The translations under genes were made by a program, and so were the position numbers. The notes under the pieces were generated by a model. The model was not told the DNA's origin. It searched no databases and saw nothing but the letters and a program-made list of their open reading frames with translations. Of a stretch of DNA of 64,000 nt, positions 11,052 to 55,458 are shown in pieces; the first letter of the stretch is position 1; every line of letters begins with the position of its first letter. Where the stretch lies: contig CAYZXY010000011.1 of the NCBI GenBank assembly GCA_964482555.1, forward strand, positions 984-64,983, written 5' to 3'. Source of the stretch: an uncultured Pirellulales bacterium (GTDB lineage Bacteria; Planctomycetota; Phycisphaerae; Sedimentisphaerales; SM23-30).

Positions 11052-11085
11052 GACGTGGAAACTTAAACAAAGAAAGAAGAAAGAT

Positions 11086-12828: not shown

Positions 12829-12953
12829 ATTCAAAATGAAAGAAGGAGATATTCGCTGCCGGCGATTTTCCTGTTTTTTATTTATCATTTTGACGTTTAA
12901 TTTAACACATGGTGGGGCGAGGCCTGCCCTGCGAAAAATAGAGTCCAGGAAAA

Positions 12954-13934
12954 ATGTTTAATTATATCATTAAACGATTGCTTTTAGCGATACCGACGCT
13001 GCTGGGGATTACGCTGGTGACGTTCACAATCATCAACCTGGCGCCGGGCGATCCGGCGGAATTTCAGTCGCAAAGGATTATGGATTCAAGTATGTCTGAA
13101 CAGGCCTATCAGCAGTACCGTGAATATTACGGATTGGACAGGCCCCTGCAAGAGCAGTACGTCAAGTGGCTGGGACGATTAGTTAAATTTGATTTTGGCG
13201 AATCGATGTCGCCGGACCGACGACCGGTAATGGATAAGGTGCGCGAGAGGTTATGGCCGACGATGTCACTGGCGATTCTGGCGGTAGGGATCAGTCTGGC
13301 GCTGTCGATTCCGATCGGGATATATTCGGCGGCGCATCAAAACGGGCTTTTCGATACGATATCCGGGACGATTCTGTATGCGCTGTATTCGGTGCCGAGT
13401 TATGTGATGGCGGTGCCGCTGATTCTGTTGATCGGGGTGCAGTGGGATTGGCTGCCGTTCCAGGGGATGGTCTCGGATAATTACGATCAGCTCGGTCCGT
13501 ACGGGAAATTCGTCGATCTGGTGCGTCATTATACCCTGATAACGTTTTGTTTCAGTTTTGGCGCCTGGGCTTACTATTCGCGTTTTGTCCGGCAGAATAT
13601 GCTGGAGGTGCTGCGGCAGGATTTTATTCGCACTGCGCGGGCGAAGGGGCTGCCGGAACACGCGGTGATTATGCGGCATGGATTTCGTAATACGCTGATT
13701 CCGGTGATTACGCTGCTGGGGATGCTGCTGCCGACGATTGTGGGCGGTTCAGTGATTCTGGAGGTGATGTTCAATTGGCCGGGGCTGGGGCGGTTATTCT
13801 TCGACAGCATGCTGCAGCGAGATTATCCGACGATTATGTCGATGACGTTTATTACGGCGTGTCTGGTGCTGCTGGGGATTCTGCTATCGGATATCGGGTA
13901 TGCGATTGTCGATCCGAGGATAAAATACCGTTGA
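12954..13934 (+). CDS. Peptide ABC transporter permease, OppB/AppB family (copy 2)
   Basis: 'NLAPGDP', 'GLDRPL..QY', 'FIRTARAKGL', 'FNWPGLG', 'DPRI'. Confidence 0.92.
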   Translation: MFNYIIKRLLLAIPTLLGITLVTFTIINLAPGDPAEFQSQRIMDSSMSEQAYQQYREYYGLDRPLQEQYVKWLGRLVKFDFGESMSPDRRPVMDKVRERLWPTMSLAILAVGISLALSIPIGIYSAAHQNGLFDTISGTILYALYSVPSYVMAVPLILLIGVQWDWLPFQGMVSDNYDQLGPYGKFVDLVRHYTLITFCFSFGAWAYYSRFVRQNMLEVLRQDFIRTARAKGLPEHAVIMRHGFRNTLIPVITLLGMLLPTIVGGSVILEVMFNWPGLGRLFFDSMLQRDYPTIMSMTFITACLVLLGILLSDIGYAIVDPRIKYR

Positions 13935-13996
13935 TCCGCAGGTCAGTAAAAGAGTATATGAGTTGAAGAGTAATCAGTGGAGCGTTATAAGAGTCA

Positions 13997-15052
13997 ATGA
14001 ATAGAGAGGAAAAAACCGGGAAGCATAAGTCTGAGGCGTACTGGGTGAATGTGTGGCGGCGAATTGTGCACAATCGACGGGGGATGCTGGGCTTGTGTTT
14101 TGTGCTGGGGATGGGGCTGGTTTCGCTGTTCAGTCCGCTGTTGGCGTCGGATCAGCCGATCGTCTGCCAGTATCAGGGGAAGTGGTATTTTCCGGCGGTG
14201 ATTGAGATTGTGCAGTCGCGCGGGCCGGGGCCGCATTGGATAGCGAAGCCGCGGCCGTTTAATCTGCCGCAATTTGACGCGAAAAAAGAGTTGGATCCAG
14301 ATGATTTTGCGATCTGGCCTTTGATACCGTACAGTGAATTTGAGCAGACAACGAATCTACTCTCGCCGCCGTCGGCGGAGCACTGGCTGGGGACGGATGA
14401 TCTGGGGCGTGATATTGCGGCGCGAATGGTGCATGGAACGACGGTGTCGATCAAGGTGGGAATTGTGTCGATGGGGATTGCGGCGTTGATCGGGATTGTG
14501 ATTGGCGGTGTGGCGGGATACTGGGGCGGCTGGGTCGATATGGTAGTCAGCCGGATAATTGAGATTGTGATTTGCTTTCCGGTGTTTTTCCTGATTCTGG
14601 CGATTATGGTCTGGCTGGAGCCGAATATTATTAATGTGATGGTGGTGATTGGTCTGACGCGCTGGACAGCGATTGCGCGATACACGCGGGGGGAGTTCAT
14701 GCGGATTAAAGAGCAGGATTATGTGCTGGCGGCCAGGGCGCTGGGTGTGAACCATACGCAGATCATGATCCGGCATATTTTGCCGAATTCGCTGGCGCCG
14801 GTGTTGGTGAGCATCACGTTTGGAATAGCCAACGCGGTGCTGATCGAGGCGGGGTTGAGTTGGCTGGGTTTCGGTGTGCAGCCGCCGAATCCTTCGTGGG
14901 GTAATATTTTGCGGACGGCTTATGATTCGCTGCGGGTCGCGCCGTATATGGTGTATCCGCCTTGTATAGCGATTTTTCTGGCGGTATTGTCGTATAATCT
15001 GGTTGGCGACGCCTTACGCGATGCGATTGATCCACGGCTAAGGAGTAATTGA
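13997..15052 (+). CDS. Peptide ABC transporter permease, OppC/AppC family (copy 2)
   Basis: '[11 protein letters not shown]', 'YVLAARALG', 'HILPN', '[11 protein letters not shown]'. Confidence 0.92.
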
Positions 15053-16065
15053 TGAGCCCAAACAATGTGTTGTTATCCGTACGGGATTTGAGTGTGTCGT
15101 TTCGAACCGAGGGCGGCGTGGTGCGCGCAGTGAATGGTTCGAGTTTCGATATCGAGAAAGGCAAGACGCTGGCGCTGGTGGGCGAGAGCGGTTGCGGCAA
15201 GAGCGTGACGGCGATGAGCGTGCTGCGGCTGATTCCGCAGCCGCCGGGTCAGATCGAGGAAGGACAGATTCTGTTTCGGGGGATGGAGCTGCTGGCGTTG
15301 AACGAGCGGCGGATGCGGGAGATTCGGGGGAATGAGATCGCGATGATTTTTCAGGAACCAATGACAAGCCTGAATCCGGTATATACGGTGGGGGACCAGA
15401 TTGTCGAGGCGATTGAGCTGCACCAGAACAAGAAGGGCTCGGCGGCACGGGCGCATGCGGTGGATATGCTGCGGTTGGTAGGGATCGCGGAGCCGGACCA
15501 GCGTGCGTGCGATTATCCGCACCAGATGTCAGGCGGTATGCGGCAGCGGGTGATGATCGCAATGGCCTTGAGCTGCGATCCGGCATTGTTGATTGCGGAT
15601 GAACCGACGACAGCTCTGGATGTGACGATCCAGGCGCAGATTCTGGATTTGATCAAGGACCTGCAGAAGCGGAACGAGATGAGCGTGCTGCTGATTACGC
15701 ACGATCTGGCGGTGGTGGCCGAGCATGCCGACGATGTGGTGGTGATGTACGCGTCGAAGATTATGGAGAAGGCGGAGGTGCGGACGATTTTTGAACGGCC
15801 GCTGCATCCCTATACGCAGGGGCTGCTGCGGTCGCTGCCGCGGCTGGAGTGCCGGACGGAGCGACTGGAGGTGATTCCGGGGACCGTGCCGAACCCGGCG
15901 AATTTCCCGTCGGGGTGCAAGTTTCATCCGCGGTGCCCGTATTGTCGGGCGGGGGATGAGAAGTGCCGGACAGTGGAGCCGGAACTGGAGGAGATCGAGC
16001 CGGGGCACTGGGTGGCGTGCTGGAAGGCACGGGAGATCCAGGAAAAATTACCACCAAGGCACTAA
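15052..16065 (+). CDS. oppD: Peptide ABC transporter ATPase, OppD/DppD
   Basis: Walker A 'GESGCGKS', 'MSGGMRQR', '[10 protein letters not shown]', C-terminal 'GCKFHPRC'. Confidence 0.93.
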
Positions 16066-16073
16066 GGAGATAT

Positions 16074-16274
16074 ATGAATCCCGCACCGATTTCTACAGAA
16101 GTCGATTTACTTGCATCTCCAATTATCGATGCAGTTTATCATGTACGTAGAAATTTGGGGCCTGAGTTATGGAAAAGAGTTTATGAAGTAGGTTTCTGTT
16201 ATGAATTAGAGAAAAGGAATTTGAATTACCTCAAATTAAGAACGGCATCAAGCGCCTGGGTGGTTAATCAATGA
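16074..16274 (+). pseudogene. Internally deleted GxxExxY-family gene remnant
   Basis: The N-terminus 'IIDAVYHVRRNLGPELWKRVYEVGFCYEL' resembles a decayed GPGLLESVY motif. The family-like C-terminus 'IKNGIKRL' (attaagaacggcatcaagcgcctg, ~16235-16258) is in a different frame. AT-rich relative to its neighbours. Confidence 0.7.
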
Positions 16275-17248
16275 CTATGGATAATCTTTTACGAATAGAG
16301 AATGTCAAGACGTATTTCCCCATCCGCAAGGGGTTGTTTTCCCGGGTGGTGGCGAATGTCAAGGCGGTGGACGGTGTGAGTTTCGATATTCCGCGCGGGC
16401 GGACGCTGGGGCTGGTGGGCGAGTCGGGCTCGGGCAAGACGACGCTGGGCCGGACGATTCTGCGGCTGATTCCGCCTACCGCCGGCAGCGTGTTGTTCGA
16501 GGACCGGGACATCTTCAAGCAGGGGGCCCGGCAACTGCGGCGGCTGCGGCGGGATATGCAGATCATTTTTCAGGATCCGTTCGGTTCGCTGAACCCGCGT
16601 ATGACGGTTGGTAACATCGTCGGGGAGGCCCTGACGGTACACGGCATCGCGCGGGGCGGTAAACGTCGGGAGATGGTGGCGGAGCTGCTGGAGCGATGCG
16701 GGTTGTCGCCGGAGTATATTCATCGCTATCCGCATGAATTTTCCGGCGGGCAGCGGCAGCGGGTCGGTATCGCCCGAGCGTTGGCGTTGAATCCCAAATT
16801 TATCGTCTGCGATGAGCCGGTCAGTGCGCTGGACGTCTCGATTCAATCGCAGATTATCAACCTCTTGCAGGATTTGCAGCAGGAGTTCGGGTTGACCTAT
16901 CTGTTCATCGCGCACAATCTGGCAGTGGTCAAACATATCAGCGATGAGGTGGCGGTTATGTATCTGGGCAAGGTAGTCGAAAAAGCCCCGGCAGAGAGAA
17001 TCTACATCGAGCCGAAACATCCTTATACCATGGCGTTGCTGTCGGCGATCCCCGAACCCGATCCTCACCGTCGTCGCGAGCGTATCCCGCTCAAGGGCGA
17101 AATGCCCAGCCCGATCAATCCGCCGTCAGGCTGCCCGTACCATCCGCGGTGCCACATGCGCATCGAACGGTGCAGTACGGAGGTCCCTCCACTGGAAGTC
17201 AAGGGCGGCGACCCGAATCATGTAGCGGCTTGCTGGGTAACGGATTAG
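16271..17248 (+). CDS. oppF: Peptide ABC transporter ATPase, OppF/DppF
   Basis: 'GESGSGKT', '[13 protein letters not shown]', 'CDEPVSALD', 'PKHPYT', 'GCPYHPRC'. Confidence 0.93.
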
Positions 17249-17339
17249 AATAAATATGCAAAAGAGTGAAAGAGATGAGGAGAGATTGAATCCCAGCGGG
17301 ATGTCCTTAGTACAGGGTTACGAACATGCCTGGCGCAAT

Positions 17340-17393
17340 GCAGGCAAGATGCCTGTGGTACCGTTTTAATTACAGGCAGGATGCCTGCGGTAC
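17340..17393. repeat. Two tandem REP-like palindromes
   Basis: GCAGGCAAGATGCCTGTGGTAC (17340-17361) and ACAGGCAGGATGCCTGCGGTAC (17372-17393), between convergent genes. Confidence 0.7.
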
Positions 17394-17457
17394 ATGCATG
17401 CCTGGGCTCATTATCGCTGCGTTCAGGATTCTTGCAGGCATGGCACCCTTAATTTTT

Positions 17458-20400
17458 TTAAAAGTTATCAAGGGGCGGGAAGGCGTAGGGGCGGAATTTT
17501 TCCAGCAGGCCCTGTTCTTCGCTGAAGAAGAGGGCACGGTGGAAGCCGAGGCGGTTGGCCATGGGCGAATCGATCAACGTGCTGGAATCGGTAGCGCTCA
17601 TCTGGAAAAGGACGCGGTTGTCGAATTCACGCAGAGTGGAGCGTTCGAAGGTGCGTTCGAGTGAGGCGAGGGTGTCAGACCAGAGCAGGGTATGGATGCC
17701 GACGGCAGGGCCGTCGCGGAGGATTTCCGCGAAGAGCTTGTCGGTTTTCGGGGTGTTTTCTTCACTAAGGGATGCGAGGCCGAAATCGTCTTCGCTGCGG
17801 CGGAGCATGCGGTAGCGCTGGATACCGAAGATAAGCAGATAGGTGGTGGGGGCGTCATTGCCGGTGTGGGCATTCGTGCGTTGCTGCATATCCTGATGGA
17901 TTGCGCTAATCGTTTCTTCAGCATCCCGCCAGTCCACCATGGTGCAGTTGTTCGGGAGGGTCAGGGCCAGTTCGAGCAGTTTGCCGGCGGTGGGGGCGTC
18001 GGGGGCGCTGCCGTCAAGAATGAGGAAGCGGGTGGATTGCGGCGGATGGTGGGCGGCCAGGCTGACCAGAGCGGCGGCGAGAATGCCCAGGGCCGCTTCG
18101 TCGCGTTGTCCGATAATCATCAGATTGGCGCCGCTGAGGCTCTGGAATTTGACGCCGGTGGGTTCTTTGATGGCGACGGGTTCGCCGAGCCAGGCGGTGG
18201 CGGACTGGGGCGGTTTTTGCGGCGGATTGGCCCGAAGTTTCTGGAGCTGATGGTTTTGCGTAATGTCGGCGGGGATGTTGCCTTCAAAAACGATGGGGGG
18301 AGTGATTTCGAGGTTTTGTTGTCGGAGCAGTTCGTTGGCGCGGGCCAGGCAGCCGTCACGCTGAGCTTCGGAAAGCCAGGATATCTGGAAGGGGCTGTTG
18401 CCGACCACCATACCGCCGGCGTCGTTGTAGATGGCTTCGCCGGGCCGGTTGAGCAGGCGGGCGGCGGTGTTGTCGTCGTCGAGGATAATCTGCGAGTCGA
18501 TTTCGGAGCATTGGAGGGCGATGCGGATGGCCATCTGGCCGATGGTGCTGCGGGCGAGGTTGGAGGAACCGCCCAGGGTCTGCGAGCCGAGAATGACATG
18601 GATGCCGAAGGCCCGGCCCTGACGGACGAGTTGTTCCATATAGATGGCGGCGTCCTGCGAGAGTTTGTCGTCTTCGGTGAAGAATATCTGGAACTCATCG
18701 ACCAGCAGCAGGATACGCGGAAGTTTTTTGCCGGTGGTTTGGCGATAGGCGGCGATATCCTGTACGCCGGCCTGCCGGAAGAGGTTGCCGCGCTGGGTCA
18801 TGATGGCATCGAGACGCTGGAGGATGCTCAGGCCGAATTCGCGGTCGCTTTCGATGGCGATGGTACGGGCGTGGGGCAGGCGGTGCGTAACGTAGGTTTT
18901 GAACTCGACGCCTTTTTTGAAGTCGATGAGGTAGAGTTCGACCTCTTCGGGCGAGTACCACAGGGCCAGGTTGGTGATGATGACATGCAGCAGGGTGGAT
19001 TTGCCGGAGCCGGTTTTGCCCGCGAGCAGGCCGTGCTGGGCGACACCGTGGCCCATGACCAGCCGCTGCAGGCGATTGGCGCCGGTACGCCCGATGGGGA
19101 TGTTGATGTCTTTGGCGCTGCTGAGGGACCAGATTTCGTCGTCGTTGGGGGCGATGGTGGCGAAGGGGACTTCGACACGGGTGGTGTCTTTGGCGGCGTT
19201 GCCAACTTTGTGCATGATGGCGGTGAGGCGTTCTTCATCCGGGGGTGCGTCTTGAAGCAGTTCGAAACGGCGATAGACCTCATCCTGCCAGACGAAGCGG
19301 TTTTCCTCGTATTTCAAGTGGACGCTGCGGGCGGCGAGATCGTCGAGGTCGAGTTCGGGTGGCATATCTTGTCGGGCGTCGTAGGCGATGAGGGTATAGA
19401 CGCCGCAGCGGGGGCCGCTGTTGATAATGCTGCTGAGCTGGCGGACGGCATCCTCGTTGAAATGATGCGGGAAATCGGCGATGACCAGATAGCGATAGGG
19501 CTCGGCCAGTTCGCCGGCCCGACGGTTGTATTCCTCGATGGTCGAGAATTCGTTGCGGAGATATTTCTGGATGACGTTTTCCATGTGGTGGGTCAGGTCA
19601 GTGAGCTGCTGCTGAATCTGTGCGGCGTCGGTCCAGATACGCCCGCCGACCAGGGCTTCGACATAATCAGCGGCGTGCATGAAACCGGCGAAGTTTTCGC
19701 CCAGGCTGACCGGATCGAGTATGGTAAACTGCACGCGGCCGGGCGGAATAGTTGTGAAGAGCCGCAGGATGACGGCACGCAGCAGATAGATAGCTTGCTC
19801 GCGACCCTGGCGTCTGGTCTCCAGCAGCAGCGAACCGCGGTCCGTAAAGGATAAGATCGCGGGGACGGTCAGGGGTGTGTTTTGCGGGAAATCGGCCAGC
19901 TGCCGGGCTTCGTCGTCAAGGGCGCTCCAGTCGAGTTCAATACGGCCAAAGCGGTACTGCGGGTGGTTTTCGTAAGGCGGTTCCCAATGTTTCCAGGCGG
20001 GATCCTGCCAGTTGCAGAAGACATCGGGGGGCTGGGCGGCGTTGGCGTCCTGAAACTGTTTGAGTATATTGAGGCTTTGCTGCCAGCGTTCATGGAGGCG
20101 GGCGCGGGCGGATTCGTAACGGTCCTGCAGGTCGCGGGTTTTCCGGCTGGTTTTCTGGATGAGTTCCTGGTGTGCCTGTTCGCACTTGGTTTCAATGCGG
20201 TTGAGGGTTTCCTCGTGACCGGTTTGGGCATTCTGTAATTCTGTGTCGTATTCGCTTTTAATGCGATTGCAGGTCTGCTGAAATTGATCGTTGATCTTCT
20301 GTAACTCATCGTCCCGTTGACTAACGAGGTAGTGGTTGAGTTTTTCGAAGTGGGCGCGGGCCTTATTGATATCGGCGGCTTTGGTTTCGGTGACTTTTTC

Positions 20401-21366
20401 CAGTTGCTGCTGGAAATGGGCAAGTCCCATTTCGTTATATTGCTCCAAAGCGATCTTTGCGGCGGCTAAAGATTCTGTCATCGCTTGGTGGATATCGGTG
20501 GTCCGGGTGCGGGCTTTTATCCAGAGCAGCCGGCCGATACCGGCGGTGATGGCCAGGGTCGAGACGAAAGCGGCAATGCCGGCAGTGAGCGGAGGGATTT
20601 GCGTGATGACGTCAAGCCTGGTGAGCAGAAATGCGATGCCGGCAGCTGCGCCGCTGATGGTGAACAGCAGCAGGAATGGTATAAGACCGGCGAACAGACG
20701 GGCGATGCCGGAGTTGGCCAGGTCTTCAGAGAGCTCGTCCAGCCGCTGTTCCTGTTTTTTGAGGACGGCTTCGGGATTCGGCAGCGGTGTGACTTCGGGA
20801 GCTGGCGTTTCCGTTGTTTCGGGGGCGGGCTGGCGGTAATGACGGATGAGAGCCAGGGCCGTTTCGTAACGCTGGTCGAGTCGCCGGCGGCGGGCCGGGA
20901 TAGATGCGGCGAACTGCTGGCGCTGTTGTTTAAGCTTCTTGCGGGTGCCGTCGGCGACGGTTTCAGCGGTGAGGATATCGTATTCGCATTTTTGTCTGCC
21001 TTCCTGGTCGGCGGCATCAAAATTACTGGAAACGTCGCTGGTATCACGGTCTTTGTGTTTTTGCAGGTCATCGAGTTGATTTTCATAATGGCGGCGGATA
21101 CCGGCGACGGTTGCTTCGTACTGCTGTCTGGCGGCGGTTATGTTTTGCTCACCGGTTTGCTCGATTTCATGGCGGGCATCGGCCATTTCGTTGTCGATGG
21201 CTTTCTGGGCGATGGTGTAGTAGGATTCGACCTGAGCCTGGGCCGGGCCGGCGATTTCTTTGGTCAGCCGGTCGAATTCACGGAGGGCGATTTTCTGCAG
21301 AGCCGCATAATTGTCCGGCACTTGGGGAGCCGGTTCGTTTAGGTAAGTTTCCAGATAGTCTGTCAT
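17458..21366 (-). CDS. FtsK/SpoIIIE-family membrane ATPase, EccC/EssC-like (type VII secretion-like)
   Basis: N-terminal coiled coil, a TM hairpin, a second coiled coil, then RecA-like domains. Intact 'AGKTGSGKST', 'LIDFKKG', 'LLVDEFQ', 'GRAFGIHVILGSQ'. Adjacent to WXG100 genes; GGAGTGAGGA RBS. Confidence 0.88.
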   Translation of the reverse strand: MTDYLETYLNEPAPQVPDNYAALQKIALREFDRLTKEIAGPAQAQVESYYTIAQKAIDNEMADARHEIEQTGEQNITAARQQYEATVAGIRRHYENQLDDLQKHKDRDTSDVSSNFDAADQEGRQKCEYDILTAETVADGTRKKLKQQRQQFAASIPARRRRLDQRYETALALIRHYRQPAPETTETPAPEVTPLPNPEAVLKKQEQRLDELSEDLANSGIARLFAGLIPFLLLFTISGAAAGIAFLLTRLDVITQIPPLTAGIAAFVSTLAITAGIGRLLWIKARTRTTDIHQAMTESLAAAKIALEQYNEMGLAHFQQQLEKVTETKAADINKARAHFEKLNHYLVSQRDDELQKINDQFQQTCNRIKSEYDTELQNAQTGHEETLNRIETKCEQAHQELIQKTSRKTRDLQDRYESARARLHERWQQSLNILKQFQDANAAQPPDVFCNWQDPAWKHWEPPYENHPQYRFGRIELDWSALDDEARQLADFPQNTPLTVPAILSFTDRGSLLLETRRQGREQAIYLLRAVILRLFTTIPPGRVQFTILDPVSLGENFAGFMHAADYVEALVGGRIWTDAAQIQQQLTDLTHHMENVIQKYLRNEFSTIEEYNRRAGELAEPYRYLVIADFPHHFNEDAVRQLSSIINSGPRCGVYTLIAYDARQDMPPELDLDDLAARSVHLKYEENRFVWQDEVYRRFELLQDAPPDEERLTAIMHKVGNAAKDTTRVEVPFATIAPNDDEIWSLSSAKDINIPIGRTGANRLQRLVMGHGVAQHGLLAGKTGSGKSTLLHVIITNLALWYSPEEVELYLIDFKKGVEFKTYVTHRLPHARTIAIESDREFGLSILQRLDAIMTQRGNLFRQAGVQDIAAYRQTTGKKLPRILLLVDEFQIFFTEDDKLSQDAAIYMEQLVRQGRAFGIHVILGSQTLGGSSNLARSTIGQMAIRIALQCSEIDSQIILDDDNTAARLLNRPGEAIYNDAGGMVVGNSPFQISWLSEAQRDGCLARANELLRQQNLEITPPIVFEGNIPADITQNHQLQKLRANPPQKPPQSATAWLGEPVAIKEPTGVKFQSLSGANLMIIGQRDEAALGILAAALVSLAAHHPPQSTRFLILDGSAPDAPTAGKLLELALTLPNNCTMVDWRDAEETISAIHQDMQQRTNAHTGNDAPTTYLLIFGIQRYRMLRRSEDDFGLASLSEENTPKTDKLFAEILRDGPAVGIHTLLWSDTLASLERTFERSTLREFDNRVLFQMSATDSSTLIDSPMANRLGFHRALFFSEEQGLLEKFRPYAFPPLDNF

Positions 21367-21558
21367 ATCCTCACTCCAGGTCCGAGAATAAATAGCTGGG
21401 TAAGAGCTTCTATGATTAATCAGGATAATTATAATTATCGCTTATGTAAATTATAAAATATGTCAGGAGGGTATGTGGTTTTCGCCTGGGCCGGTCGTAA
21501 GTTAAGAGACGCCCTAAAGCATTCCATGGATTTGTATTATGGCAACTGGAGGACTTTA

Positions 21559-21719
21559 GGGCACCTCTAAAAATTCATTTTGGGCTGCAAGCGATCTTTT
21601 TTCCTTCTGGCCTTCGTCATGAAAAACCGTGAATATTCACCCATATGCCCGGTTTTGCATTTCTTGTCAGACGAAAAAAATCTTCGTTTTCGCCTCAAAA
21701 GCAATTATTAGAGGCACCC
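21559..21719. mobile_element. 161-bp MITE with IS-type terminal inverted repeats
   Basis: Left end GGGCACCTCTAAAAATT and right end AATTATTAGAGGCACCC are imperfect inverted repeats (3 mismatches in 17). TTTA flanks both sides (21555-58, 21720-23). No transposase. Confidence 0.75.
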
Positions 21720-21746
21720 TTTAGTGAAAACGGGCCGCAAGCGGTG

Positions 21747-21959
21747 TTACTGGCATTCACGGCGCAAGCGGTCGATAAGGGTGGCTATACGCTCCATGGC
21801 CTGGCTGGTCTTTTTGATTTCAGCTTGCAGGGGGAGGATGTAGTCATTTTCAAACTGCCGGCAGTTATCGTCCTTCCAGATGTTTTTCATTTCGTTCCAG
21901 TGCAGGTCCAGTTTTCTGGCGGCCTGGATCAGTTTCGCATGGCTGTCATCAATGCTCAT
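21747..21959 (-). CDS. Small WXG100-like helical hairpin protein (WKD variant)
   Basis: 70 aa, all-helical pattern with central 'IWKDDNCRQFE'. AGGAG RBS; sits between the FtsK and WXG100 genes. Confidence 0.7.
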   Translation of the reverse strand: MSIDDSHAKLIQAARKLDLHWNEMKNIWKDDNCRQFENDYILPLQAEIKKTSQAMERIATLIDRLRRECQ

Positions 21960-22104
21960 TGTGATTCACTCCTGATTTAGCTCTTATAAGTGGCTTATTG
22001 CACAATCAGGCAATAAAGTTAAGAATGACGAAACCAGTCGGACTTCGGCATTCGAAATTCTGATTAAGTTTTTCAGGTATCACCGGCGGGGATACGAATT
22101 TTTA

Positions 22105-23148
22105 TTAATCTTCTGGCAGACAATTGACGTCGTCCGCATTGAAAACGGCTATAAGCCGGCCCTGTTCCAGGACGATCAGGAAGCCGGCGGGTAATTTTAA
22201 CAGGTCCATGAAATCGAGCCTGAGCGTCAGAATATCCTTGACAGTACAGGCCTGATAAGCGGCGTGTGTTGCTTTATCGGCGTCAGCGATAAACCAGCCG
22301 CTGTCGTTGGGGCTTGCAGTTGCGATGCGTTCCAGGTAAATCGTGCCGCCGGGTGCCGGGAGATCGGCCAGGATGATTTTGTAGCCCGGTGCGAGCGGCT
22401 GCCTGACGGCGGTCAGGCGATTTATGAGGTCACGGTCTTTATTGTCAAGGCGGACAAGACCGAGATCGGATTGCCGAAGGGCATCGAGAGTGATTTGCTG
22501 CCGCTGCGATACAGAAGGGGTTAACACCCGCAGATTGAGGAAACGGCTCAGCGGATCGCCGGTATCATCGGCAGGGGGTGCCTCAGGACCTTCCGGGGTG
22601 GTGGTGGAGACACTTTGGGATTCGTTGATGCCGGCGGTCGGATCGGCCGCCGCAGCGGGAGGGGCGACGATAAGGTATTGCTCAAGCGAACGCATCATGT
22701 TTTCCAGGCGGGCCAGGGCGTTGGGGATTTCCGAATCGATGAAACCGGCCAGCCCCTGCATCTGCCCCCGGCAGGTGAAGATTTCAGTTTCAAGTTGAGC
22801 CGTGTAGGTTTTGATGCGCTCGTTTTTCTGTTCAGCCTTCTGCAGCTGCCTTTCGGCCTGAGCGAGGGCTTTTTTTTCGTCGATATAGGAATACTGGCCG
22901 CCAATGGGTGATTGCTCGAGGTCTTGTTTGCGTTTGAGGTTCAAGCGGGCCTGTTCGTATTTCTCGCGGCGGAGCCGAAGCTGATTTTTCCAGTAGCGGG
23001 CCCGGTCCTGGGTCAGCCAGAGCGTCGCCTGCTGCATGTCGGCCATGGTTTCATCCAGGGCGGCCATGGCCGTGTCGGAGAAAACGGACAGCGTGTTTTT
23101 CAGCTCTTGGAGCTTTTCGATAGAATATATGCGGGCGTGATCAACCAT
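22105..23148 (-). CDS. Helical-bundle protein with C-terminal Imm33/DUF2185-like domain
   Basis: About 160-aa coiled-coil N-terminus, a Pro/Ala/Thr-rich linker, and a C-terminus 'YLER....NDSGWFI...ILTLRLDFMDLLKLPAG' resembling Imm33. Confidence 0.65.
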   Translation of the reverse strand: MVDHARIYSIEKLQELKNTLSVFSDTAMAALDETMADMQQATLWLTQDRARYWKNQLRLRREKYEQARLNLKRKQDLEQSPIGGQYSYIDEKKALAQAERQLQKAEQKNERIKTYTAQLETEIFTCRGQMQGLAGFIDSEIPNALARLENMMRSLEQYLIVAPPAAAADPTAGINESQSVSTTTPEGPEAPPADDTGDPLSRFLNLRVLTPSVSQRQQITLDALRQSDLGLVRLDNKDRDLINRLTAVRQPLAPGYKIILADLPAPGGTIYLERIATASPNDSGWFIADADKATHAAYQACTVKDILTLRLDFMDLLKLPAGFLIVLEQGRLIAVFNADDVNCLPED

Positions 23149-23273
23149 GAGGGAATGTCAAGATAACAAAGTAGTTGATATATTTTTAAGTCATCAAGTC
23201 GTAATTGGCCATTACGCCAGGGCACTCGTTCGGGAAACAGGTTAACAACACTCTTGTGATTTCGAATGTTTGC

Positions 23274-23546
23274 TTATCGCTGCTGGAGATATTCTTCGAT
23301 CAGGTGTGCTTTTTTGGTCAGGAACGACACGTGGCGGGTGGACGATTCCAAAAAGCGGCTCAGGGTTTTCATGGTTTGTTCAAATTCGGCGGAGAATTTG
23401 CGCTGTTCCTGATCCTGCCAGGTTTTTTCTAGATTACGCATTCGCTGATGCAGACCGTTGGTCAGGGTTTCCAGTTCGGTATTGAACCGGTGCAGGTCGC
23501 GGGCAAATCGTCTCAGTTCGGCCGGGTCAACATTGGCTTTACTCAT
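23274..23546 (-). CDS. WXG100-family protein (EsxA-like, WQD variant)
   Basis: 90 aa 'MSKANVDPAELRRFARDL...TWQDQEQRKFSAEF...IEEY'. Typical 'VDP.EL' start and central W-x-D; no signal peptide. Confidence 0.88.
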   Translation of the reverse strand: MSKANVDPAELRRFARDLHRFNTELETLTNGLHQRMRNLEKTWQDQEQRKFSAEFEQTMKTLSRFLESSTRHVSFLTKKAHLIEEYLQQR

Positions 23547-23770
23547 GTCCAGTTCCTGAAGCGAGGTAAAGGTATCAATTTTGAGAAAAACATTCCACAT
23601 TTATTTTATCATATCGCAATAAAAATGGCAAACAATTTGTATAACGATTCCAGAGAGGACAATATTGCGGCAATATTTTACAATCTATTGCATTAGCAGG
23701 AGTTAAAGGATAAAATATAGCAATAACCATTACATGCCATGATAGCAGTTATACGTTTCCGGAGCCAGCC

Positions 23771-24793
23771 TTGAAGTCAGATCAAACCCGTCTCCAGATT
23801 TTCTCCTCGCATGACGAATCCGTCGAGCAGCAGAACTCGTCTATTTTTGCATTTGACAGCAAGTGGTCAACAGAGCAGATCGATAATGTGCTGGGATGGG
23901 GGGCGTCGCTTATTATCCATGTTATCATCGTACTGACGTTGTTTTATTTGTCCTGGCCGGGCCGTCCTGTTTTGCCATCGGGGCCAGCAGAAGTCGGTCT
24001 GGTCATGGAGCCAACGGGTAATGAGGATGCTTTTAATTCGGCTTCCGAAGGCTTCGAGGCGATTAGAATAAATCCAGTGGATGTAGCTGAATCTTTGCCA
24101 GAAGTTGATCTGCAGATGGATGATATGACGCTGGAAATGACGCAGGCCATTCCGCAGGAGACTACGGAACAGGATGAGATGAATCCGGCTGATATGCCGG
24201 GGGAAGATTTTTCGCCGTTGGCGATGGGCGATCCGGAAGGATTGATGGTTGGCGGCGGCCGCGCTGTCGGCGGCACGGCCAGCTTTTTCGGTTTGCAGGT
24301 CAAGGGGCAGAAGTTTGTTTATGTCGTCGATTATTCCGGCAGTATGACGGGATTGAAACTGCAGCGGGCTAAACAGGAAATTGTACGTTCACTGTATTCT
24401 CTGGACAGCAACATGGAGTTCTTCATAATTTTTTATGATAATGGATATATGACCATGCCCGGCGACAAATTGATGCCGGCGACCGATATGAACAAACAGC
24501 GTTACGCGAATTGGCTGCTTGAAGTTCGTGGCGGGGGCGGGACCGATCCGACCGGAGCGATGATGAAAGCGTTATCGCTGGGCCCGGATGCCGTGTGGCT
24601 GCTTTCGGACGGCCGCTTTGATCCAGTGGTGTGCGACGTCATACAACGAGCCAACGCCGTGCGTAAAGTGCGCATTAATACCATTGCTTATCATGACGAC
24701 AGCAGCGAGCAGCAATTGCGTCTGATAGCCCAGCAGAGCCAGGGGCAGTTCCGGTTTGTCCCGGCGCCGGCAGGCTGGCGCGGCCGTAGATGA
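23771..24793 (+). CDS. Membrane-anchored VWA-domain protein
   Basis: TM 'SLIIHVIIVL' (TonB-anchor-like SxxxH), acidic linker, 'ASFFG', MIDAS 'VVDYSGSM', 'GGT', 'LLSDG'. Confidence 0.85.
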   Translation: MKSDQTRLQIFSSHDESVEQQNSSIFAFDSKWSTEQIDNVLGWGASLIIHVIIVLTLFYLSWPGRPVLPSGPAEVGLVMEPTGNEDAFNSASEGFEAIRINPVDVAESLPEVDLQMDDMTLEMTQAIPQETTEQDEMNPADMPGEDFSPLAMGDPEGLMVGGGRAVGGTASFFGLQVKGQKFVYVVDYSGSMTGLKLQRAKQEIVRSLYSLDSNMEFFIIFYDNGYMTMPGDKLMPATDMNKQRYANWLLEVRGGGGTDPTGAMMKALSLGPDAVWLLSDGRFDPVVCDVIQRANAVRKVRINTIAYHDDSSEQQLRLIAQQSQGQFRFVPAPAGWRGRR

Positions 24794-24839
24794 ATCGTTT
24801 GCAGAAAAAGAAATGAATACGTGTATCTGGAGTACTTTT

Positions 24840-25592
24840 ATGCGAAAGCTGATAATTCTGGGATTGGCGTCAGGCATTATTCTGGGAGGTATGTTTGCGG
24901 GTTATTCGCCCCTGAGGGGTCAGGAAGACGCGTTGCCGGAGACGGCAGCCGCGGCGGAGAGCCATGATATTTCGCTGTGGCAGGTGGTGCAATCAGGCGG
25001 CATGGTGGGATACCTGATTCTGGTGATGTCGCTGGCGGCGCTGGCACTGATTATACGGAACTTTATCACGCTGCAGCGGCGACGGCTGCTGCCGGACCCG
25101 CTGGAAGCAGAATTGGAGGAACTGCTGCAAAAGCATGAGTATGAGCAGGCCCGGCAGGTGTGCGGGGATAATCCTTCGTTTCTGGCGCATGTGATCGGTG
25201 CGGGCCTGACGCAGGTGGGCTCGATGTTTGGCTTTTTTGATATGCAGAACGCGATGCAGGAGACCAGTGAGCGGGAGATTTCCCGTTTGTATCGAAAACT
25301 GGAATATCTGGCGTTTATCGCCTCGACCGCGCCGATGCTGGGATTGCTGGGGACGGTGTTGGGTATGATCAAGGCATTTAATGAAATTTCGCTGTCTGAG
25401 GGGGCGGCGCAGCCGTCGCAGCTGGCGGGCGGTATATCCGAAGCGCTGGTGACAACGTGTCTGGGGCTGATTGTGGCGATTCCCACGATGTTTTTCGTTG
25501 CATTTTTCCGCAACCGGATCGATTCGACCGTTTCGGAGGCGGAGATAGTCGTCGAGAAATTAATGGGCCGCTTTCGCCGTCAGAGTGTGTAA
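24840..25592 (+). CDS. exbB: MotA/TolQ/ExbB proton channel protein
   Basis: 'APMLGLLGTVLGMIKAF', 'LAGGISEALVTTCLGLIVAIP'. Confidence 0.92.
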   Translation: MRKLIILGLASGIILGGMFAGYSPLRGQEDALPETAAAAESHDISLWQVVQSGGMVGYLILVMSLAALALIIRNFITLQRRRLLPDPLEAELEELLQKHEYEQARQVCGDNPSFLAHVIGAGLTQVGSMFGFFDMQNAMQETSEREISRLYRKLEYLAFIASTAPMLGLLGTVLGMIKAFNEISLSEGAAQPSQLAGGISEALVTTCLGLIVAIPTMFFVAFFRNRIDSTVSEAEIVVEKLMGRFRRQSV

Positions 25593-25635
25593 TAATCGCT
25601 CGTTTCTATTCGAATCTAAGACAGAGTGAAACATC

Positions 25636-26070
25636 ATGCGTTTACGAAAAACGTTTCATCGACCAGGATATCAGATCAACATTGCACCGCTGATTGATGT
25701 GGTGTTTCTGCTGATTGTGTTTTTTCTGGTCGTATCCCAGTTTACCCGTATCGAGGTTGAGCCGCTGGAATTACCACAGGCCCGGACGGAGACTAAGGAC
25801 ACATCTCCGGCGCCACGACCGGTTATTGTCAATATCGACCGGGACGGGATCATCATGGTTGCCGGCGTCACACATTCGGAAGGGTCGTTTGGGTACCTTT
25901 TGCAGGAGCATCTTGAAAGGTCAAATGCTGGTGATGTGTCGGTGCTGGTGCGGGCCGATCGCATGAGCGATTGGGGTGTCGTCCGGCAGGTGATGGCGCA
26001 ATGCGCCCGCAAAGGCATCTATCGTGTGAAGGTTGCCGCGTTGGAAGAAAAACCAGCTGCGGAAGAATAA
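25636..26070 (+). CDS. exbD: ExbD/TolR family protein
   Basis: 'INIAPLIDVVFLLIVFF', 'LPQA', 'VRAD'. Confidence 0.92.
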   Translation: MRLRKTFHRPGYQINIAPLIDVVFLLIVFFLVVSQFTRIEVEPLELPQARTETKDTSPAPRPVIVNIDRDGIIMVAGVTHSEGSFGYLLQEHLERSNAGDVSVLVRADRMSDWGVVRQVMAQCARKGIYRVKVAALEEKPAAEE

Positions 26071-26093
26071 ATGTGATACTGAGATAATGTAAG

Positions 26094-26519
26094 ATGTTAT
26101 TAACGAGACAGAAAAGAAAAACAATTCCGCCCGAATTGAATATGGCGGCCATGATTGATGTAGTGTTTCTGCTGTTGATATTTTTCATGTGCACCAGTTC
26201 TTTGCAGCATCCGGAGCGGAAACTGTTGGCATGGCTGCCGCAGTCGTCGCAGGCTTCGGAGCCGGTCAGCGATTTTGAACCTGTGGTTATTACGGTGACA
26301 GGCGGGCCCGGGGCGGCCGTACTTGAATGTGATGGTGTGCCCTGTACAGGTATAAGGGAACTGCGTCGGGAATTGCGGCTACGACGGCAGGTGGCCGATA
26401 TGCCGGTAATTATACGGGGCGATGAGGGCGTTCCTTTTGAACTGATGGTGGATGTAATGGATATTTGCTATGAGGAAGAATTTCAGCAGGTGGCATATGC
26501 CGTCCGCGTTTTTGAATAG
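26094..26519 (+). CDS. exbD: ExbD/TolR family protein (second copy)
   Basis: 'LNMAAMIDVVFLLLIFFM', 'IIRGDEGVPF'. Confidence 0.9.
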   Translation: MLLTRQKRKTIPPELNMAAMIDVVFLLLIFFMCTSSLQHPERKLLAWLPQSSQASEPVSDFEPVVITVTGGPGAAVLECDGVPCTGIRELRRELRLRRQVADMPVIIRGDEGVPFELMVDVMDICYEEEFQQVAYAVRVFE

Positions 26520-26524
26520 CTGTT

Positions 26525-29056
26525 ATGAGTTGTTTTCGTAATATATTGTGTAAAGCGTGGCGCCGGGGAAGCCGCTGGTTCATATTATTTTGCTGGGTGA
26601 TAGCGTTGGTGATATGCTGTTGTGGGGCGGATAATATTAAGACGGAGCAGACGCCCGATCAGCTCGAAGAAGCCATCTCCCGTCAGCTTGGCGAGGTATT
26701 AAACATGTCGGATTATGCTGCCGCCGAAAAGGCGGTCGCAGCCGTGAACCGGCAGATTGAGGAGGCGGAGCGTCTGGACGAACTTGCCGTTGCGTTTCTG
26801 CGGGCTCAGGTTATGCAGGTGCGCGGCCGTATTCGACTGGTGCACTGGCGGGAAGGTGAGCATCGGGAGAACGATCGTCGCCTGGCGTATGAGGATCTGA
26901 CGGCGGCGCGGGAAGGCATGCAGGCCGTGTGGGAACAGAGCGATGAAGAACTAAAGGTTCTGCGGGAAAAGTATCGTTCCAATGCCCCCAAACAAAGTCG
27001 TTGGCGCCAGCTGCAGAATTATCTCAGCCGTATTCATTATACGAAGGCCTGGATCGATTATTCGCTGGGATTGCTGATTCCAAAAGAACAGGCCCCGGAA
27101 AAACATTTCCGCAGGGCGATGAACACCTTCGAAACGTTTACCAGCGACGGCTATCAGCCGCATCCGGTGGTGGCGGACTGCTTTTTGGGCGTGGGGTTGT
27201 GTTTATATGAGCTGGGCGAGCATCAACGTATTCTGGAACTGCTGAATGTAAACAGGGTGACGCCGGATAATACGCCGGTGCGTATCTTCCGGCGGATGAC
27301 ACGGCTGCGGATCAAGGCCGCACAGGCGATTCCTTCTCATTTACACGTAATTAACGCGGCGCAACAGTATCTGGAGTCTTTGCCGGCGGAGAGCGGTATG
27401 TCGGCGGGGGATTTGCAACTGTCGTTGGCGTGGGCTAAGAGCATCAAGGTTTTTTTGAGTTCGTCAGTTCCTCAGGCATACCGTGAAAGTCTTTTTCATC
27501 AGCGCCGTCGGCTTATCATGATGGTGTATTCTTATGGTGATGCCTGGCGAGAGGCGCTGCTGCAAGAGCTGGAACCGATTGAAACACCAGATGTTCTGAC
27601 GGAGCTTTTACAAAGTCGTGTCCATTTTTCCCGGCAGGAGTATGTACCAGCTCTGAAGGCCGCTGTGAATTGTCTGGAACGGGGGGAAGGATCATTGCCG
27701 GCGGCGTATTTGCCGGATTTGTATTTTCTCCATGCGGCATCGAACTGGAATCTCCAGCATTGGCAAGCGGCATATATATCCGCGAGGGCCTTTGTCGTTA
27801 AGTTTCCCGACGACGACCGACGCGGTCGCATGGGATCCATTGTTTTGCAGGGCGGCTATCGGGCGTTGCAGGCGAATCAGGTTTCTGCGGATGAATTTCA
27901 AAACGCTTTGAGGGAAATGAAGGAATTTGCCTGGCCGGACGACATGAAAGATGCCATGACATGGTATGAAGCGAAAACGCTGCTGGACCGGAAGTTGTAT
28001 GAAAATGCCTTACAGGTTCTGGAAACCATTGAAAAGAGCTCTTTACAGTTTTCTTTAGCGTTGTATGGCTGTGCTCTCGCCCATTTTGAGCGGGCGGTCC
28101 TGCTGATTAAGCGGCATGGAGATGAAGCGGTCTACCGGGATCGGATTCTTTTGCATCTGAATGACACGATAACAAATCTGGAAACGTTTATCGCTCTGGG
28201 AGCGGAGACGGATTCGGAATCGCTTCGTCAGGGGATGTTGACGATCGGGTTGGCCGCGGCTCAGACCGCTCTGACTCTTGATCCGCCGGCGTATGAACCG
28301 GCTCAAAAGGCGGTGCACGTGCTCGAAACTGACTTATCCTCCGAGCAAGAGTTCGCCGGGCAGCGGCAGGCTCTCAAGCTGGCTGCATTTGCCCGGGAGG
28401 ATATTGAGGCGACCTGCGAAGCGATTATGGAAATCATCGAAGAGCGTGCGGATGAAGAACCATTCCTGCGGGCCCTGATAACGATAGCCAATATTTATGA
28501 GCAGGCCGTTCGTGAGGATGCCGGCGCTTTAGGTACATCAACCATGGAAAAGGTGAATCAGTGTCTGCTGGCTGTTTATGAATATCTGTCGGGCATCGAG
28601 AGAGTAAACCGGTTCAGTGAAGGGCTGGATGAGTATGCCCTGCGAAAGAGAACGGCCGATGTGATGATGCGGCTGGGCCAGTATGATTTTGCCGCTGCCC
28701 ATTATGAATGGCTTATGAAACAGTCCCGTCGAGGCGACACCGCCACCATCGAACGGGAACTGGCGCTGGCATATACTATGACGCAGGACTATAAAGCGTC
28801 GTTGACGTATTGGCGCCGTCTGACGCGCATTCGGCCCGGTGGATCTGCCGGCTGGTTCGAGGGGTATTACTATATGATTAAGGCATATCGGCATCTCGAT
28901 CAGCACGATAAGGCGGTTCAGTTGTTGAATTATGTCCGGCTTCGTTATCCGGATATCGAGAACGAAACATGGCGTGAGGCTTTTATGCGTCTGAGTGAGG
29001 AAATAATGATTGCACAGCCAGCTGAAACCGGTGACTCAAAGGAAGATAGACCATGA
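26525..29056 (+). CDS. Large exported TPR/alpha-solenoid protein
   Basis: Hydrophobic N-terminus with Cys, helical repeats, C-terminal 'GWFEGYYY...LRYPD'. Confidence 0.7.
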   Translation: MSCFRNILCKAWRRGSRWFILFCWVIALVICCCGADNIKTEQTPDQLEEAISRQLGEVLNMSDYAAAEKAVAAVNRQIEEAERLDELAVAFLRAQVMQVRGRIRLVHWREGEHRENDRRLAYEDLTAAREGMQAVWEQSDEELKVLREKYRSNAPKQSRWRQLQNYLSRIHYTKAWIDYSLGLLIPKEQAPEKHFRRAMNTFETFTSDGYQPHPVVADCFLGVGLCLYELGEHQRILELLNVNRVTPDNTPVRIFRRMTRLRIKAAQAIPSHLHVINAAQQYLESLPAESGMSAGDLQLSLAWAKSIKVFLSSSVPQAYRESLFHQRRRLIMMVYSYGDAWREALLQELEPIETPDVLTELLQSRVHFSRQEYVPALKAAVNCLERGEGSLPAAYLPDLYFLHAASNWNLQHWQAAYISARAFVVKFPDDDRRGRMGSIVLQGGYRALQANQVSADEFQNALREMKEFAWPDDMKDAMTWYEAKTLLDRKLYENALQVLETIEKSSLQFSLALYGCALAHFERAVLLIKRHGDEAVYRDRILLHLNDTITNLETFIALGAETDSESLRQGMLTIGLAAAQTALTLDPPAYEPAQKAVHVLETDLSSEQEFAGQRQALKLAAFAREDIEATCEAIMEIIEERADEEPFLRALITIANIYEQAVREDAGALGTSTMEKVNQCLLAVYEYLSGIERVNRFSEGLDEYALRKRTADVMMRLGQYDFAAAHYEWLMKQSRRGDTATIERELALAYTMTQDYKASLTYWRRLTRIRPGGSAGWFEGYYYMIKAYRHLDQHDKAVQLLNYVRLRYPDIENETWREAFMRLSEEIMIAQPAETGDSKEDRP

Positions 29057-55000: not shown

Positions 55001-55458
55001 CCGCAATCATGGAGATAGGAAAGGCCTTTAGCGATTTCGCGGAGGAAAAACGCCGTTTTTTGCGGTCCCAGGCCGCTGGGAGCGTTATCGATCAGGTCAC
55101 GCAGTGAAGGACCGGCTACATATTCCATGATGACAAAGGGCCGCCCGTCCTGGTTGTACTTGACATCGAAGATCGTGACCAGATGGGGGTTCTTCAGATT
55201 CATGCACTGGGTGATGCCGCGCAGCTCGATCTGCTCGTAGTTCTGGATCGCTTTGAGCGCAACCTGCCTGCCGCCGTCGCTGACGGCGTAATAGACTTCA
55301 CCAAAACCACCGCGACCGGCAGCCCGATGAATCGTGTACCCTTCGAGGGGTTTGTCTCCATATTTATACCGAAAATTATGCATCCTGGATACCCTGTCCA
55401 TTATATCATATTCGTCCTGCTTTGCCAATTGCCCGGTACTCGATTTCGCCTTCAGCAT
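52075..55458 (-). CDS. Hanks-type Ser/Thr protein kinase with many TM segments and a TM2 (NINE) domain
   Basis: 'GRGGFGEVY', 'ALK', 'HRDIKPGN', 'DYG', 'GTVHYMAPE'; TM2 '[23 protein letters not shown]...VD'. AGGAGGT RBS before ATG 55458. Confidence 0.92.

Follow-up and report, generated by a model that had tools for sequence, protein, structure and literature searches.

What the minimal translocon of type VII secretion systems (T7SSs) consists of, and whether the EccC/EssC ATPase is itself the channel, are open questions, and they are raised directly by a four-gene locus of an uncultured Pirellulales bacterium (contig CAYZXY010000011.1 of assembly GCA_964482555.1). Within the 64,000-nucleotide stretch of DNA analysed here (hereafter the window), positions 17458–23546 encode a WXG100 protein, two further helical proteins and a membrane ATPase of the EccC/EssC kind, in an organism with an outer membrane. 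Can so small a set of proteins serve in protein export and, if so, to where? Our answer is that the locus probably encodes a minimal exporter of proteins, type VII-like (WXG100/EccC-type), in a diderm Planctomycetota bacterium, which would deliver its substrates into the periplasm. Taken broadly, the cassette belongs with the type VII-like, or WXG100, secretion systems; its role in export is suggested by the sequence relationships of its parts.

A reading made from the DNA letters (hereafter the sequence-only reading) had described four co-oriented genes at this locus, and all four were recovered on the minus strand, arranged head to tail in the order WXG100 gene, 347-amino-acid (aa) gene, 70-aa gene and 1302-aa ATPase gene. 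The host genome (3.6 Mb, 154 contigs) is 97.09% complete with 0.11% contamination, and the metagenome-assembled genomes that gave relatives of the window proteins are labelled Phycisphaerae, Sedimentisphaerales and Planctomycetota. The features of the cassette are as follows.

23274..23546, minus strand: WXG100 protein of the HP0062 type, 90 aa, with a W-Q-D turn in place of W-x-G and a conserved C-terminal tail.
22105-23148, minus strand: 347-aa protein, with a hairpin domain and an Imm33-like C-terminus.
22654..23148, minus strand: hairpin domain, aa 1–165 of the 347-aa protein, the conserved core of the gene.
22144..22434, minus strand: Imm33-like domain (PF24719), aa 239–335 of the 347-aa protein, optional within the family.
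21747..21959, minus strand: 70-aa helical protein, weakly WXG100-like, the predicted partner of the hairpin domain.
17458..21366, minus strand: EccC/EssC-like membrane ATPase, 1302 aa (PF01580).
20518..20712, minus strand: two predicted transmembrane (TM) helices of the ATPase, aa 219–247 and 259–283 (Kyte-Doolittle).
19177..19959, minus strand: P-loop domain 1 of the ATPase, aa ~470–730, well conserved, with a degenerate Walker A motif.
18307..19119, minus strand: P-loop domain 2, aa ~750–1020, with intact Walker A and Walker B motifs.
17467..18219, minus strand: P-loop domain 3, aa ~1050–1300, with a degenerate Walker A motif, a candidate substrate-binding domain.

The first protein scored 39.2 bits against the WXG100 family of Pfam (PF06013, cut-off 27.3) and 37.2 bits against the NCBIfam subfamily model, slightly under its cut-off of 44.85. 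Its open reading frame spans 23274–23600, and all homologues begin at an internal methionine (alignment A2), which supports the start at 23546 that the sequence-only reading had chosen. Both W43 and D45 of the W-Q-D turn are invariant in the same alignment, and Tyr86 is invariant in the conserved C-terminal tail. When a profile of 14 homologues was searched against the Protein Data Bank (PDB), only solved WXG100 dimers were retrieved, with HP0062 first (E = 1.3e-11) and EsxB and EsxA next; the lead of HP0062 over Bacillus EsxB was small (47.9 versus 42.5 bits). HP0062 of H. pylori carries a "WRD" turn and is clustered with an FtsK/SpoIIIE gene, according to a passage of PMC3397514. With its W-x-D turn, its length of about 90 aa, its clustering with an FtsK/SpoIIIE gene and its diderm host, the window protein belongs to the HP0062-type subfamily, and it is probably dimeric like HP0062. 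A scan of the genome revealed no second WXG100 protein above cut-off.

The last gene encodes what had been called a 1302-aa membrane FtsK ATPase. Indeed, the protein has two predicted TM helices and matched FtsK_SpoIIIE (PF01580) at 122.1 bits (cut-off 24), with its best stretch at aa 775–926. The ATPase is nearest to EccC/EssC and not to FtsK or coupling proteins, as indicated by hidden Markov models (HMMs), PDB sequences and the predicted fold. Among NCBIfam models, it scored 120.2 bits for EssC (TIGR03928), 113.2 for EccCa (TIGR03924) and 107.1 for EccCb (TIGR03925), versus 24.2 for FtsK (NF007615, cut-off 1566). Against sequences in the PDB, Thermomonospora curvata EccC scored 130 bits, EccC5 93, Bacillus subtilis YukB 69, FtsK 35 and TcpA 34. 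Consistently, a model of residues 451–1302 (predicted local distance difference test score (pLDDT) 77.9, predicted template modelling score (pTM) 0.63) comprised three alpha/beta domains, and Foldseek matched it to EccC over three tandem domains with an E value of 8.7e-35, ahead of EssC fragments (~1e-21), FtsK (1e-13) and TcpA (1e-11). Pfam detected no FtsK alpha or gamma (DNA-binding) domain on the ATPase at E≤1, and a separate true FtsK is encoded elsewhere in the genome (contig C48, 211.7 bits). The expectation that the ATPase would not cluster with DNA translocases or coupling proteins thus held. The family is very large, with 7998 of the 8000 best candidates at E≤0.001; where these carry a name, it is mostly FtsK.

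The architecture of the ATPase was examined in an alignment of 20 homologues and a second one of 17. The N-terminal ~450 residues are poorly conserved and form coiled coil, and the P-loop domains are well conserved. An N-terminal coiled coil (aa 1–215) is followed by a TM hairpin (aa 219–283) and a coiled-coil stalk (aa 300–440); hydropathy in a Kyte-Doolittle window of 19 rose above 1.6 solely at the two TM helices, which are separated by a loop of ~10 residues. Domain 1 has G-R-E in place of G-K-S/T and coincides with a second PF01580 stretch (22.3 bits). Domain 2 alone is intact: its Walker A motif G-K-T-G-S-G-K-S-T (aa 782–790) and Walker B motif V-D-E-F are invariant columns across the 17–20 homologues. 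Domain 3 reads G-Q-R-D-E at the P-loop, lacks the acidic Walker B and lines up with the final ATPase domains in both EccC and EssC; it is a candidate for binding substrate. A PADLOC match of the stalk to ZorA (aa 295–445, 31 bits) was set aside as coiled-coil composition. A different arrangement was seen in genome G008 (locus L036, 4997–8671), where a WXG100 gene is followed by a gene for a 124-aa TM-helix protein and one for a 960-aa ATPase lacking a TM segment. This looks like a split system with the membrane anchor as a separate gene and is reminiscent of the EccCa/EccCb splits; no hairpin homologue was found in that genome at E≤1e-5.

The 347-aa protein had been described as helical and Imm33-like, and both descriptions apply. 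Residues 239–335 matched the Imm33-like family PF24719 at 32.7 bits (cut-off 27); the score for the classical Imm33 family, PF09951, was under cut-off (13.9 versus 25.4 bits). The first 165 residues had no match in Pfam or NCBIfam. In an AlphaFold2 model computed with 18 homologues, this region forms a long hairpin of antiparallel helices (residues 7–78 and 89–161, pLDDT >90), with a disordered linker and then a small alpha/beta domain C-terminal to it. A search with a hairpin-domain profile recovered 3054 representative clusters at E≤0.001, 2247 of them at E≤1e-10, among 1.84 billion representatives. Within the best 150 of these 3054, the domain is N-terminal in every case, and the lengths fall into 71 proteins of 160–299 aa (hairpin only), 78 of 320–419 aa and one of 674 aa. 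An Imm33-like domain is present in 5 of 14 aligned Planctomycetota sequences, and scanning 10 variants of unusual length revealed four with an Imm33-like domain, one with a type I phosphodiesterase domain and five with no recognisable domain. Because the hairpin is N-terminal throughout and the C-termini vary, we regard it as a carrier domain to which further modules can be attached C-terminally.

Two observations on individual family members stand apart. In the 674-aa protein, P0202, the hairpin precedes a type I phosphodiesterase/nucleotide pyrophosphatase domain (105 bits); the protein is possibly an enzymatic cargo or a gene-call fusion. Nuclease-like (ParB-/HNH-like) C-termini seen by eye in the Chloroflexota homologues of L026 and L028 were rejected, as Pfam gave no match at E≤1.

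The 70-aa protein had no family match in Pfam or NCBIfam. In its family alignment, W21, W28 and D30 are invariant and F36 is near-invariant, a pattern that mirrors the W-x-D...F motif of the WXG100 protein. A PDB profile search gave two matches at E≤10, both to Staphylococcus aureus EsxA (E = 0.5). In the protein atlas, the closest Pfam-bearing cluster is WXG100 (score 0.81), which serves as a lead only, and its closest 30 clusters consist of unnamed 70-aa proteins from Planctomycetota and Verrucomicrobiota. Separately, the family displays a nearly invariant cysteine at the last or penultimate position within the motif R/K-x-D/E-C-x (alignment A1), which adjoins the C-terminal tail of the WXG100 protein in the model described below.

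We modelled hairpin residues 1–165, the WXG100 protein and the 70-aa protein as three chains, with the 70-aa protein as the scored partner. In each of three runs its placement on the hairpin scored an ipSAE of 0.83, compared with 0.02 for the highest-scoring of three controls; the mark used for this score is passed by 58 of 80 solved complexes and by 2 of 110 mismatched pairs. Contact agreement between runs was at least 95%, and the pLDDT of the 70-aa partner was 91. In the model, the 70-aa protein packs on hairpin residues 3–53 and 108–151, at the open end of the hairpin, resulting in a four-helix bundle, and its contact with the WXG100 protein is limited to WXG100 residues 86–90. The pairing of hairpin and 70-aa protein is thus supported by a model. 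That the small proteins fold as helical hairpins, as the sequence-only reading had it, is consistent with the matches of the WXG100 profile to HP0062, EsxB and EsxA, with the two 72-residue helices modelled in the 347-aa protein and with the confident model of the 70-aa chain.

The four genes form a conserved unit. We found 23 related loci: 15 complete ones in Planctomycetota, four cut ones, three in Chloroflexota and one in Deltaproteobacteria. All four genes occur in identical order in 15/15 Planctomycetota loci having upstream DNA; in the four cut loci (L019, L021, L030 and L031) the contig ends inside the ATPase gene, and these were excluded from the synteny count. Identities to the window across the 15 loci were 61–73% for the WXG100 protein, 30–41% for the hairpin protein, 26–51% for the 70-aa protein and 46–50% for the ATPase. 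(Near-duplicates of L013 and L012, namely L015 and L018, were left out of alignments A2–A5, and L018 and L027 out of A1.) Since the same order recurs in 15 independent loci, the arrangement is far beyond chance. In the three Chloroflexota loci and the Deltaproteobacteria locus, the WXG100 gene adjoins a hairpin homologue, the ATPase gene lies 0.1–5 kb beyond, and tblastn found no 70-aa homologue. The hairpin-to-ATPase intervals of these loci contain no type VII part and hold a transposase, a CopG/DUF433 pair or an FGE-sulfatase-like gene. In two Chloroflexota loci, a CopG/DUF433 pair, a YhgA-like transposase and a gene with an FGE-sulfatase domain have entered this gap (L028, 5048–6777; L026, 2771–5667).

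The distribution is patchy. The hairpin family was detected in 50/401 sampled Planctomycetota genomes (30/244 high-quality ones), with one match each, and in 8/251 sampled Chloroflexota genomes. It is present in 13/20 genomes of family f9, in 10/23 of family f18 and in 0/6 of family f2, the sister of the window's family. The WXG100 profile matched 52/401 Planctomycetota genomes, and these include all 50 hairpin carriers. By coordinates, 39 of the 50 carriers have the hairpin and WXG100 genes side by side and 11 have them unlinked, ten of these 11 belonging to family f9; in four f9 genomes that were checked, three of them among the 11, an ATPase of the same family is present far from the hairpin gene. 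Because the hairpin and WXG100 genes are co-present even when unlinked, this is good evidence that they share a function. The module ranges over Planctomycetota, Chloroflexota and Deltaproteobacteria by its loci, probably over Verrucomicrobiota by the taxa in the protein atlas, and may extend to Campylobacterota via HP0062. In G156 (L034 and L035) and other f9 genomes, the hairpin, WXG100 and ATPase genes lie hundreds of kb to Mb apart, and in G156 the hairpin gene is followed, in place of the 70-aa gene, by a gene for a membrane protein of 1367 aa whose very long tail is of low complexity and rich in Gly, Pro, Gln and Lys.

We then asked for the accessory parts of known T7SSs, which the sequence-only reading had failed to recognise in the window. 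In the whole genome, EccB and EccD (TIGR03920) had 0 matches at E≤1, as had EsaA (TIGR03929), EssA (PF10661), EssB/YukC (PF10140) and EsaB/YukD (PF08817). EccE reached 12.5 bits, under its cut-off of 23.7, and the best subtilase scored 46.1 bits against the mycosin cut-off of 278.75. Positive controls were matched in B. subtilis or Corynebacterium glutamicum as expected, and the mapping of accessions to components was checked against PMC3415414. Likewise, YukD, YukC and EccB above cut-off were not found in 10 other carriers (six Planctomycetota, three Chloroflexota and one Deltaproteobacteria). The host is diderm, as had been deduced from the secretin and ExbBD of the window: a secretin (PF00263, 139.5 bits) is encoded at 490–2535, ExbB and two ExbD proteins within 24756–26519, and another part of the genome codes for Omp85 (142.4 bits). 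The cassette encodes no component for crossing the outer membrane, and none of the three small proteins shows, on inspection of its sequence, a hydrophobic signal peptide at the N-terminus.

Collectively, these data lead us to propose a mechanism. The ATPase would sit in the inner membrane via its two-helix hairpin and, by homology, would form an oligomer like EccC/EssC in which the middle P-loop domain alone hydrolyses ATP. Residues 1–165 of the hairpin protein and the 70-aa protein would form the four-helix bundle seen in the model, analogous to the EsxA-EsxB, PE-PPE and LXG-Lap pre-secretion complexes, and the HP0062-type WXG100 protein could be a co-substrate or a targeting partner. The degenerate last P-loop domain may read the conserved C-terminal tails of the WXG100 protein and of the hairpin/70-aa bundle. 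Driven by the middle P-loop domain through a channel of the ATPase's own TM hairpins, the folded helical bundles, together with the C-terminal module of the hairpin protein (here Imm33-like), would cross the inner membrane into the periplasm. Because the genome lacks the canonical accessory membrane proteins, the ATPase would itself have to form the channel. In the ESX-5 structures, the TM helices of EccC are reportedly located at the hexamer centre.

Several points weigh against this proposal. To our knowledge, every characterised T7SS needs extra membrane components, and a channel formed by the ATPase without partners is hypothetical. EccC and EssC have one P-loop-like domain more than the window ATPase, which is also far under the equivalog cut-offs of EssC (778.4 bits), EccCa (509.15) and EccCb (346.55). 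The fold of the predicted hairpin is generic: Foldseek found no match of the 347-aa model in the PDB at E≤0.001, the best VIA-align Z score (10.8) was to unrelated coiled coils and lies under the level informative for helical models, and when the hairpin-domain profile was run against the PDB, all matches were to coiled coils, keratins among them (best E = 0.006). The fold searches speak neither for nor against a likeness to LXG or PE/PPE proteins. The comparison of hairpin helix 1 with the WXG100 profile by hhalign was weak (probability 18%, E = 0.0013). Similarly weak was that of the 70-aa protein (probability 15.6%, E = 0.0017), in which the W-x-D motifs are in register; the description of it as a second small WXG100-like protein thus holds only weakly. 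The complex score was obtained with self-made shallow alignments and three chains, unlike the calibration of the tool, it covers the placement of the 70-aa protein and not the position of the WXG100 protein, and helical bundles are easy to model. An Imm33-like domain is an odd cargo for export, as such domains are typical of cytoplasmic immunity proteins, according to the relevant part of PMC3482391. Finally, a search of sequencing runs for the locus returned four DNA runs from one microbial-mat metagenome study and no RNA run.

We weighed an unlikely alternative in which nothing crosses the membrane and the locus encodes a non-secretory membrane ATPase complex with the helical proteins as cytoplasmic adaptors or regulators, acting in envelope or division remodelling or in signalling. 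Such a complex would suit the topology of the ATPase, which has only the ~10-residue loop outside and, on the cytoplasmic side, ~440 residues of coiled coil with poor conservation, as well as the normally cytoplasmic Imm33-like domain and the absence of a linked outer-membrane component. A single copy in each of the 50/401 carrier genomes also resembles a housekeeping-style accessory module; however, the patchy distribution, down to 0/6 in f2, speaks against a core cellular role. Moreover, the nearest relatives of both the WXG100 protein and the ATPase are secretion proteins, and the hairpin domain bears variable C-terminal modules, as secretion carriers do.

Those variable C-termini, including the longer unrecognised ones in Chloroflexota (frames of 225–418 aa, 8/251 genomes), could also be taken to mean interbacterial conflict, with the hairpin as an LXG-like carrier that delivers toxins or anti-toxin decoys to competitors in a polymorphic effector system. 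The resemblance of the small WXG-like partners to Lap1/Lap2 and the origin of Imm33 in the toxin-immunity world would fit. We nevertheless consider this improbable: a toxin domain was found in 0/10 variants and 0/6 further sequences at E≤1, about half of the hairpin family has no C-terminal module, and what follows is no immunity gene but the conserved 70-aa gene. Each genome has a single copy, arrays of cassettes are not seen, and no route over the producer's own outer membrane is encoded. Least credible, and in our view very improbable, is a DNA-handling or anti-phage ATPase of the FtsK/HerA type (conjugative coupling, DNA pumping or SspH-like defence): in PADLOC, the active P-loop domain scored 92 bits for SspH and 66 bits for mad8, and the ATPase is weakly similar to FtsK and TcpA, but these PADLOC matches are limited to a P-loop core of 150–210 residues, none was found for the three small proteins, so that no known anti-phage system had several of its components matched, no FtsK alpha or gamma domain is matched at E≤1 in a genome with its own true FtsK, and the cassette is flanked by genes of an Opp-type ABC transporter and by a vWA-ExbBD cluster, none of them a mobile, relaxase or modification gene.

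We therefore retain the minimal export module as the favoured interpretation. A bolder version of it joins several claims, namely that a hexamer of the ATPase alone is the inner-membrane channel and needs no EccB/D/E or EssA/B/EsaA scaffold, that it exports the hairpin/70-aa/WXG100 bundle, that the bundle acts on or builds a passage in the outer membrane, and that the module is the ancestral core of both T7SSa and T7SSb. Taken jointly, these claims are speculative, and we advance them tentatively as somewhat doubtful.

The module bears on the question posed at the outset. Reduced to an ATPase and three helical proteins, it is a direct test bed for the minimal translocon, and it is abundant, occurring in 12% of sampled Planctomycetota genomes and in thousands of sequence clusters, with some carriers being complete chromosomes, several of them of Sedimentisphaerales or Phycisphaerae type, such as those of L016, L017 and L022. 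It also raises the question of what role folded helical bundles would have in a diderm periplasm. The general idea of Gram-negative WXG100/FtsK pairs is already in print: a passage of a 2023 review notes pairs of WXG100 and FtsK/SpoIIIE in some Gram-negatives as functionally unconfirmed (PMC10765036), and a 2026 review, in the part that deals with distribution, describes T7SS chiefly from Actinomycetota and Bacillota (PMC13492133). The proposal of the sequence-only reading, a stripped-down ESX-like or periplasm-targeting system, is thus supported, with secretion as its conjectural part, and is less new than had been assumed, judging from these passages of PMC10765036 and PMC3397514. A full-text literature search combining type VII or WXG100 with Planctomycetes, Planctomycetota or EssC, whose scope did not extend to Sutcliffe 2011 and Unnikrishnan 2017, which a review gives as sources for such Gram-negative pairs, found no description of the cassette. 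Four things appear to be new: the four-gene unit and its conservation, a large and so far unannotated hairpin family together with its predicted 70-aa pairing, the three-domain ATPase with a single active site and the co-occurrence statistics.

A spacer of 380 nucleotides (21367–21746), AT-rich, parts the 70-aa gene from the ATPase gene, unlike most related loci, in which the two genes abut or overlap. A scan for promoter consensus gave 9 sites versus 3.6 expected in shuffles, two of which concern the cassette as consensus matches only.

23603..23631, minus strand: promoter-like site 5' of the WXG100 gene, TTGCCA-17-TAAAAT, 10/12 positions, with TG.
21428..21457, minus strand: promoter-like site in the spacer between the 70-aa and ATPase genes, TTTATA-18-TATAAT, 10/12 positions.

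An Rfam scan of 17000–24000 gave nothing close to threshold: a lone miRNA family scored 26 bits, where the gathering score is 90. Both flanks are unrelated to the cassette: downstream lies a convergent Opp-type ABC transporter (10999–17248) and upstream a divergent vWA-ExbB-ExbD-ExbD cluster (23771–26519). The latter opens a longer run (23771–31167) in which genes for a membrane vWA protein, ExbB and two ExbD proteins are followed by those for 843-aa and 704-aa proteins without a Pfam family, which may be a TonB-less ExbBD-powered module. Farther along the window, the minus strand encodes a 1135-aa Ser/Thr protein kinase (52075–55482; Pkinase 166.5 bits) with TM2 (42.8 bits) in its C-terminal half, and a 655-aa protein (49983–51950) whose sole recognisable part is ExbD-like (26.1 bits, barely above cut-off) and which is unusually long for the ExbD family.

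Finally, we compared the cassette with known systems. Because the defining accessory proteins were searched for and not found, it falls in neither T7SSa nor T7SSb. It resembles T7SSa (ESX) in that EccC is the best PDB match of the ATPase by both structure and sequence and in that the substrates of ESX are helical-hairpin dimers; it differs in that its genome has no EccB, EccD, EccE or mycosin above cut-off and no PE/PPE or EspG. With T7SSb it shares a WXG100 protein as putative substrate and an EssC-type ATPase with two TM helices and tandem P-loops, TIGR03928 being the best NCBIfam match. Unlike T7SSb, its genome lacks EsaA, EssA, EssB/YukC and EsaB/YukD, the host is diderm, the ATPase begins with a poorly conserved coiled coil of ~215 aa and has no FHA domains, and there are three instead of four P-loop-like domains, with the middle one alone intact. 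In the LXG-Lap1-Lap2 complexes of T7SSb, a long helical domain is bound by small WXG100-like targeting factors, which also bear an export motif, as set out in a section of Klein et al. 2022 (PMC9600955). The cassette differs from the LXG-Lap systems in having no LXG family match at E≤1, no toxin domain and no immunity gene, and any homology to them is hypothetical. What it shares with LXG-Lap1-Lap2 and, as far as the passages on that system go, with EatA-TapA1-TapA2 is a long N-terminal helical domain, a variable C-terminus and two small helical proteins encoded alongside. The likeness to HP0062 (PDB 3FX7, 2GTS) comprises the W-R/Q-D turn in place of W-x-G, clustering with FtsK/SpoIIIE, a diderm host and the top rank among solved matches. 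The two unannotated families defined by the module, the 165-aa hairpin domain with its 3054 representative clusters and its 70-aa partner, would tie the solved but unexplained HP0062 to a wider system.

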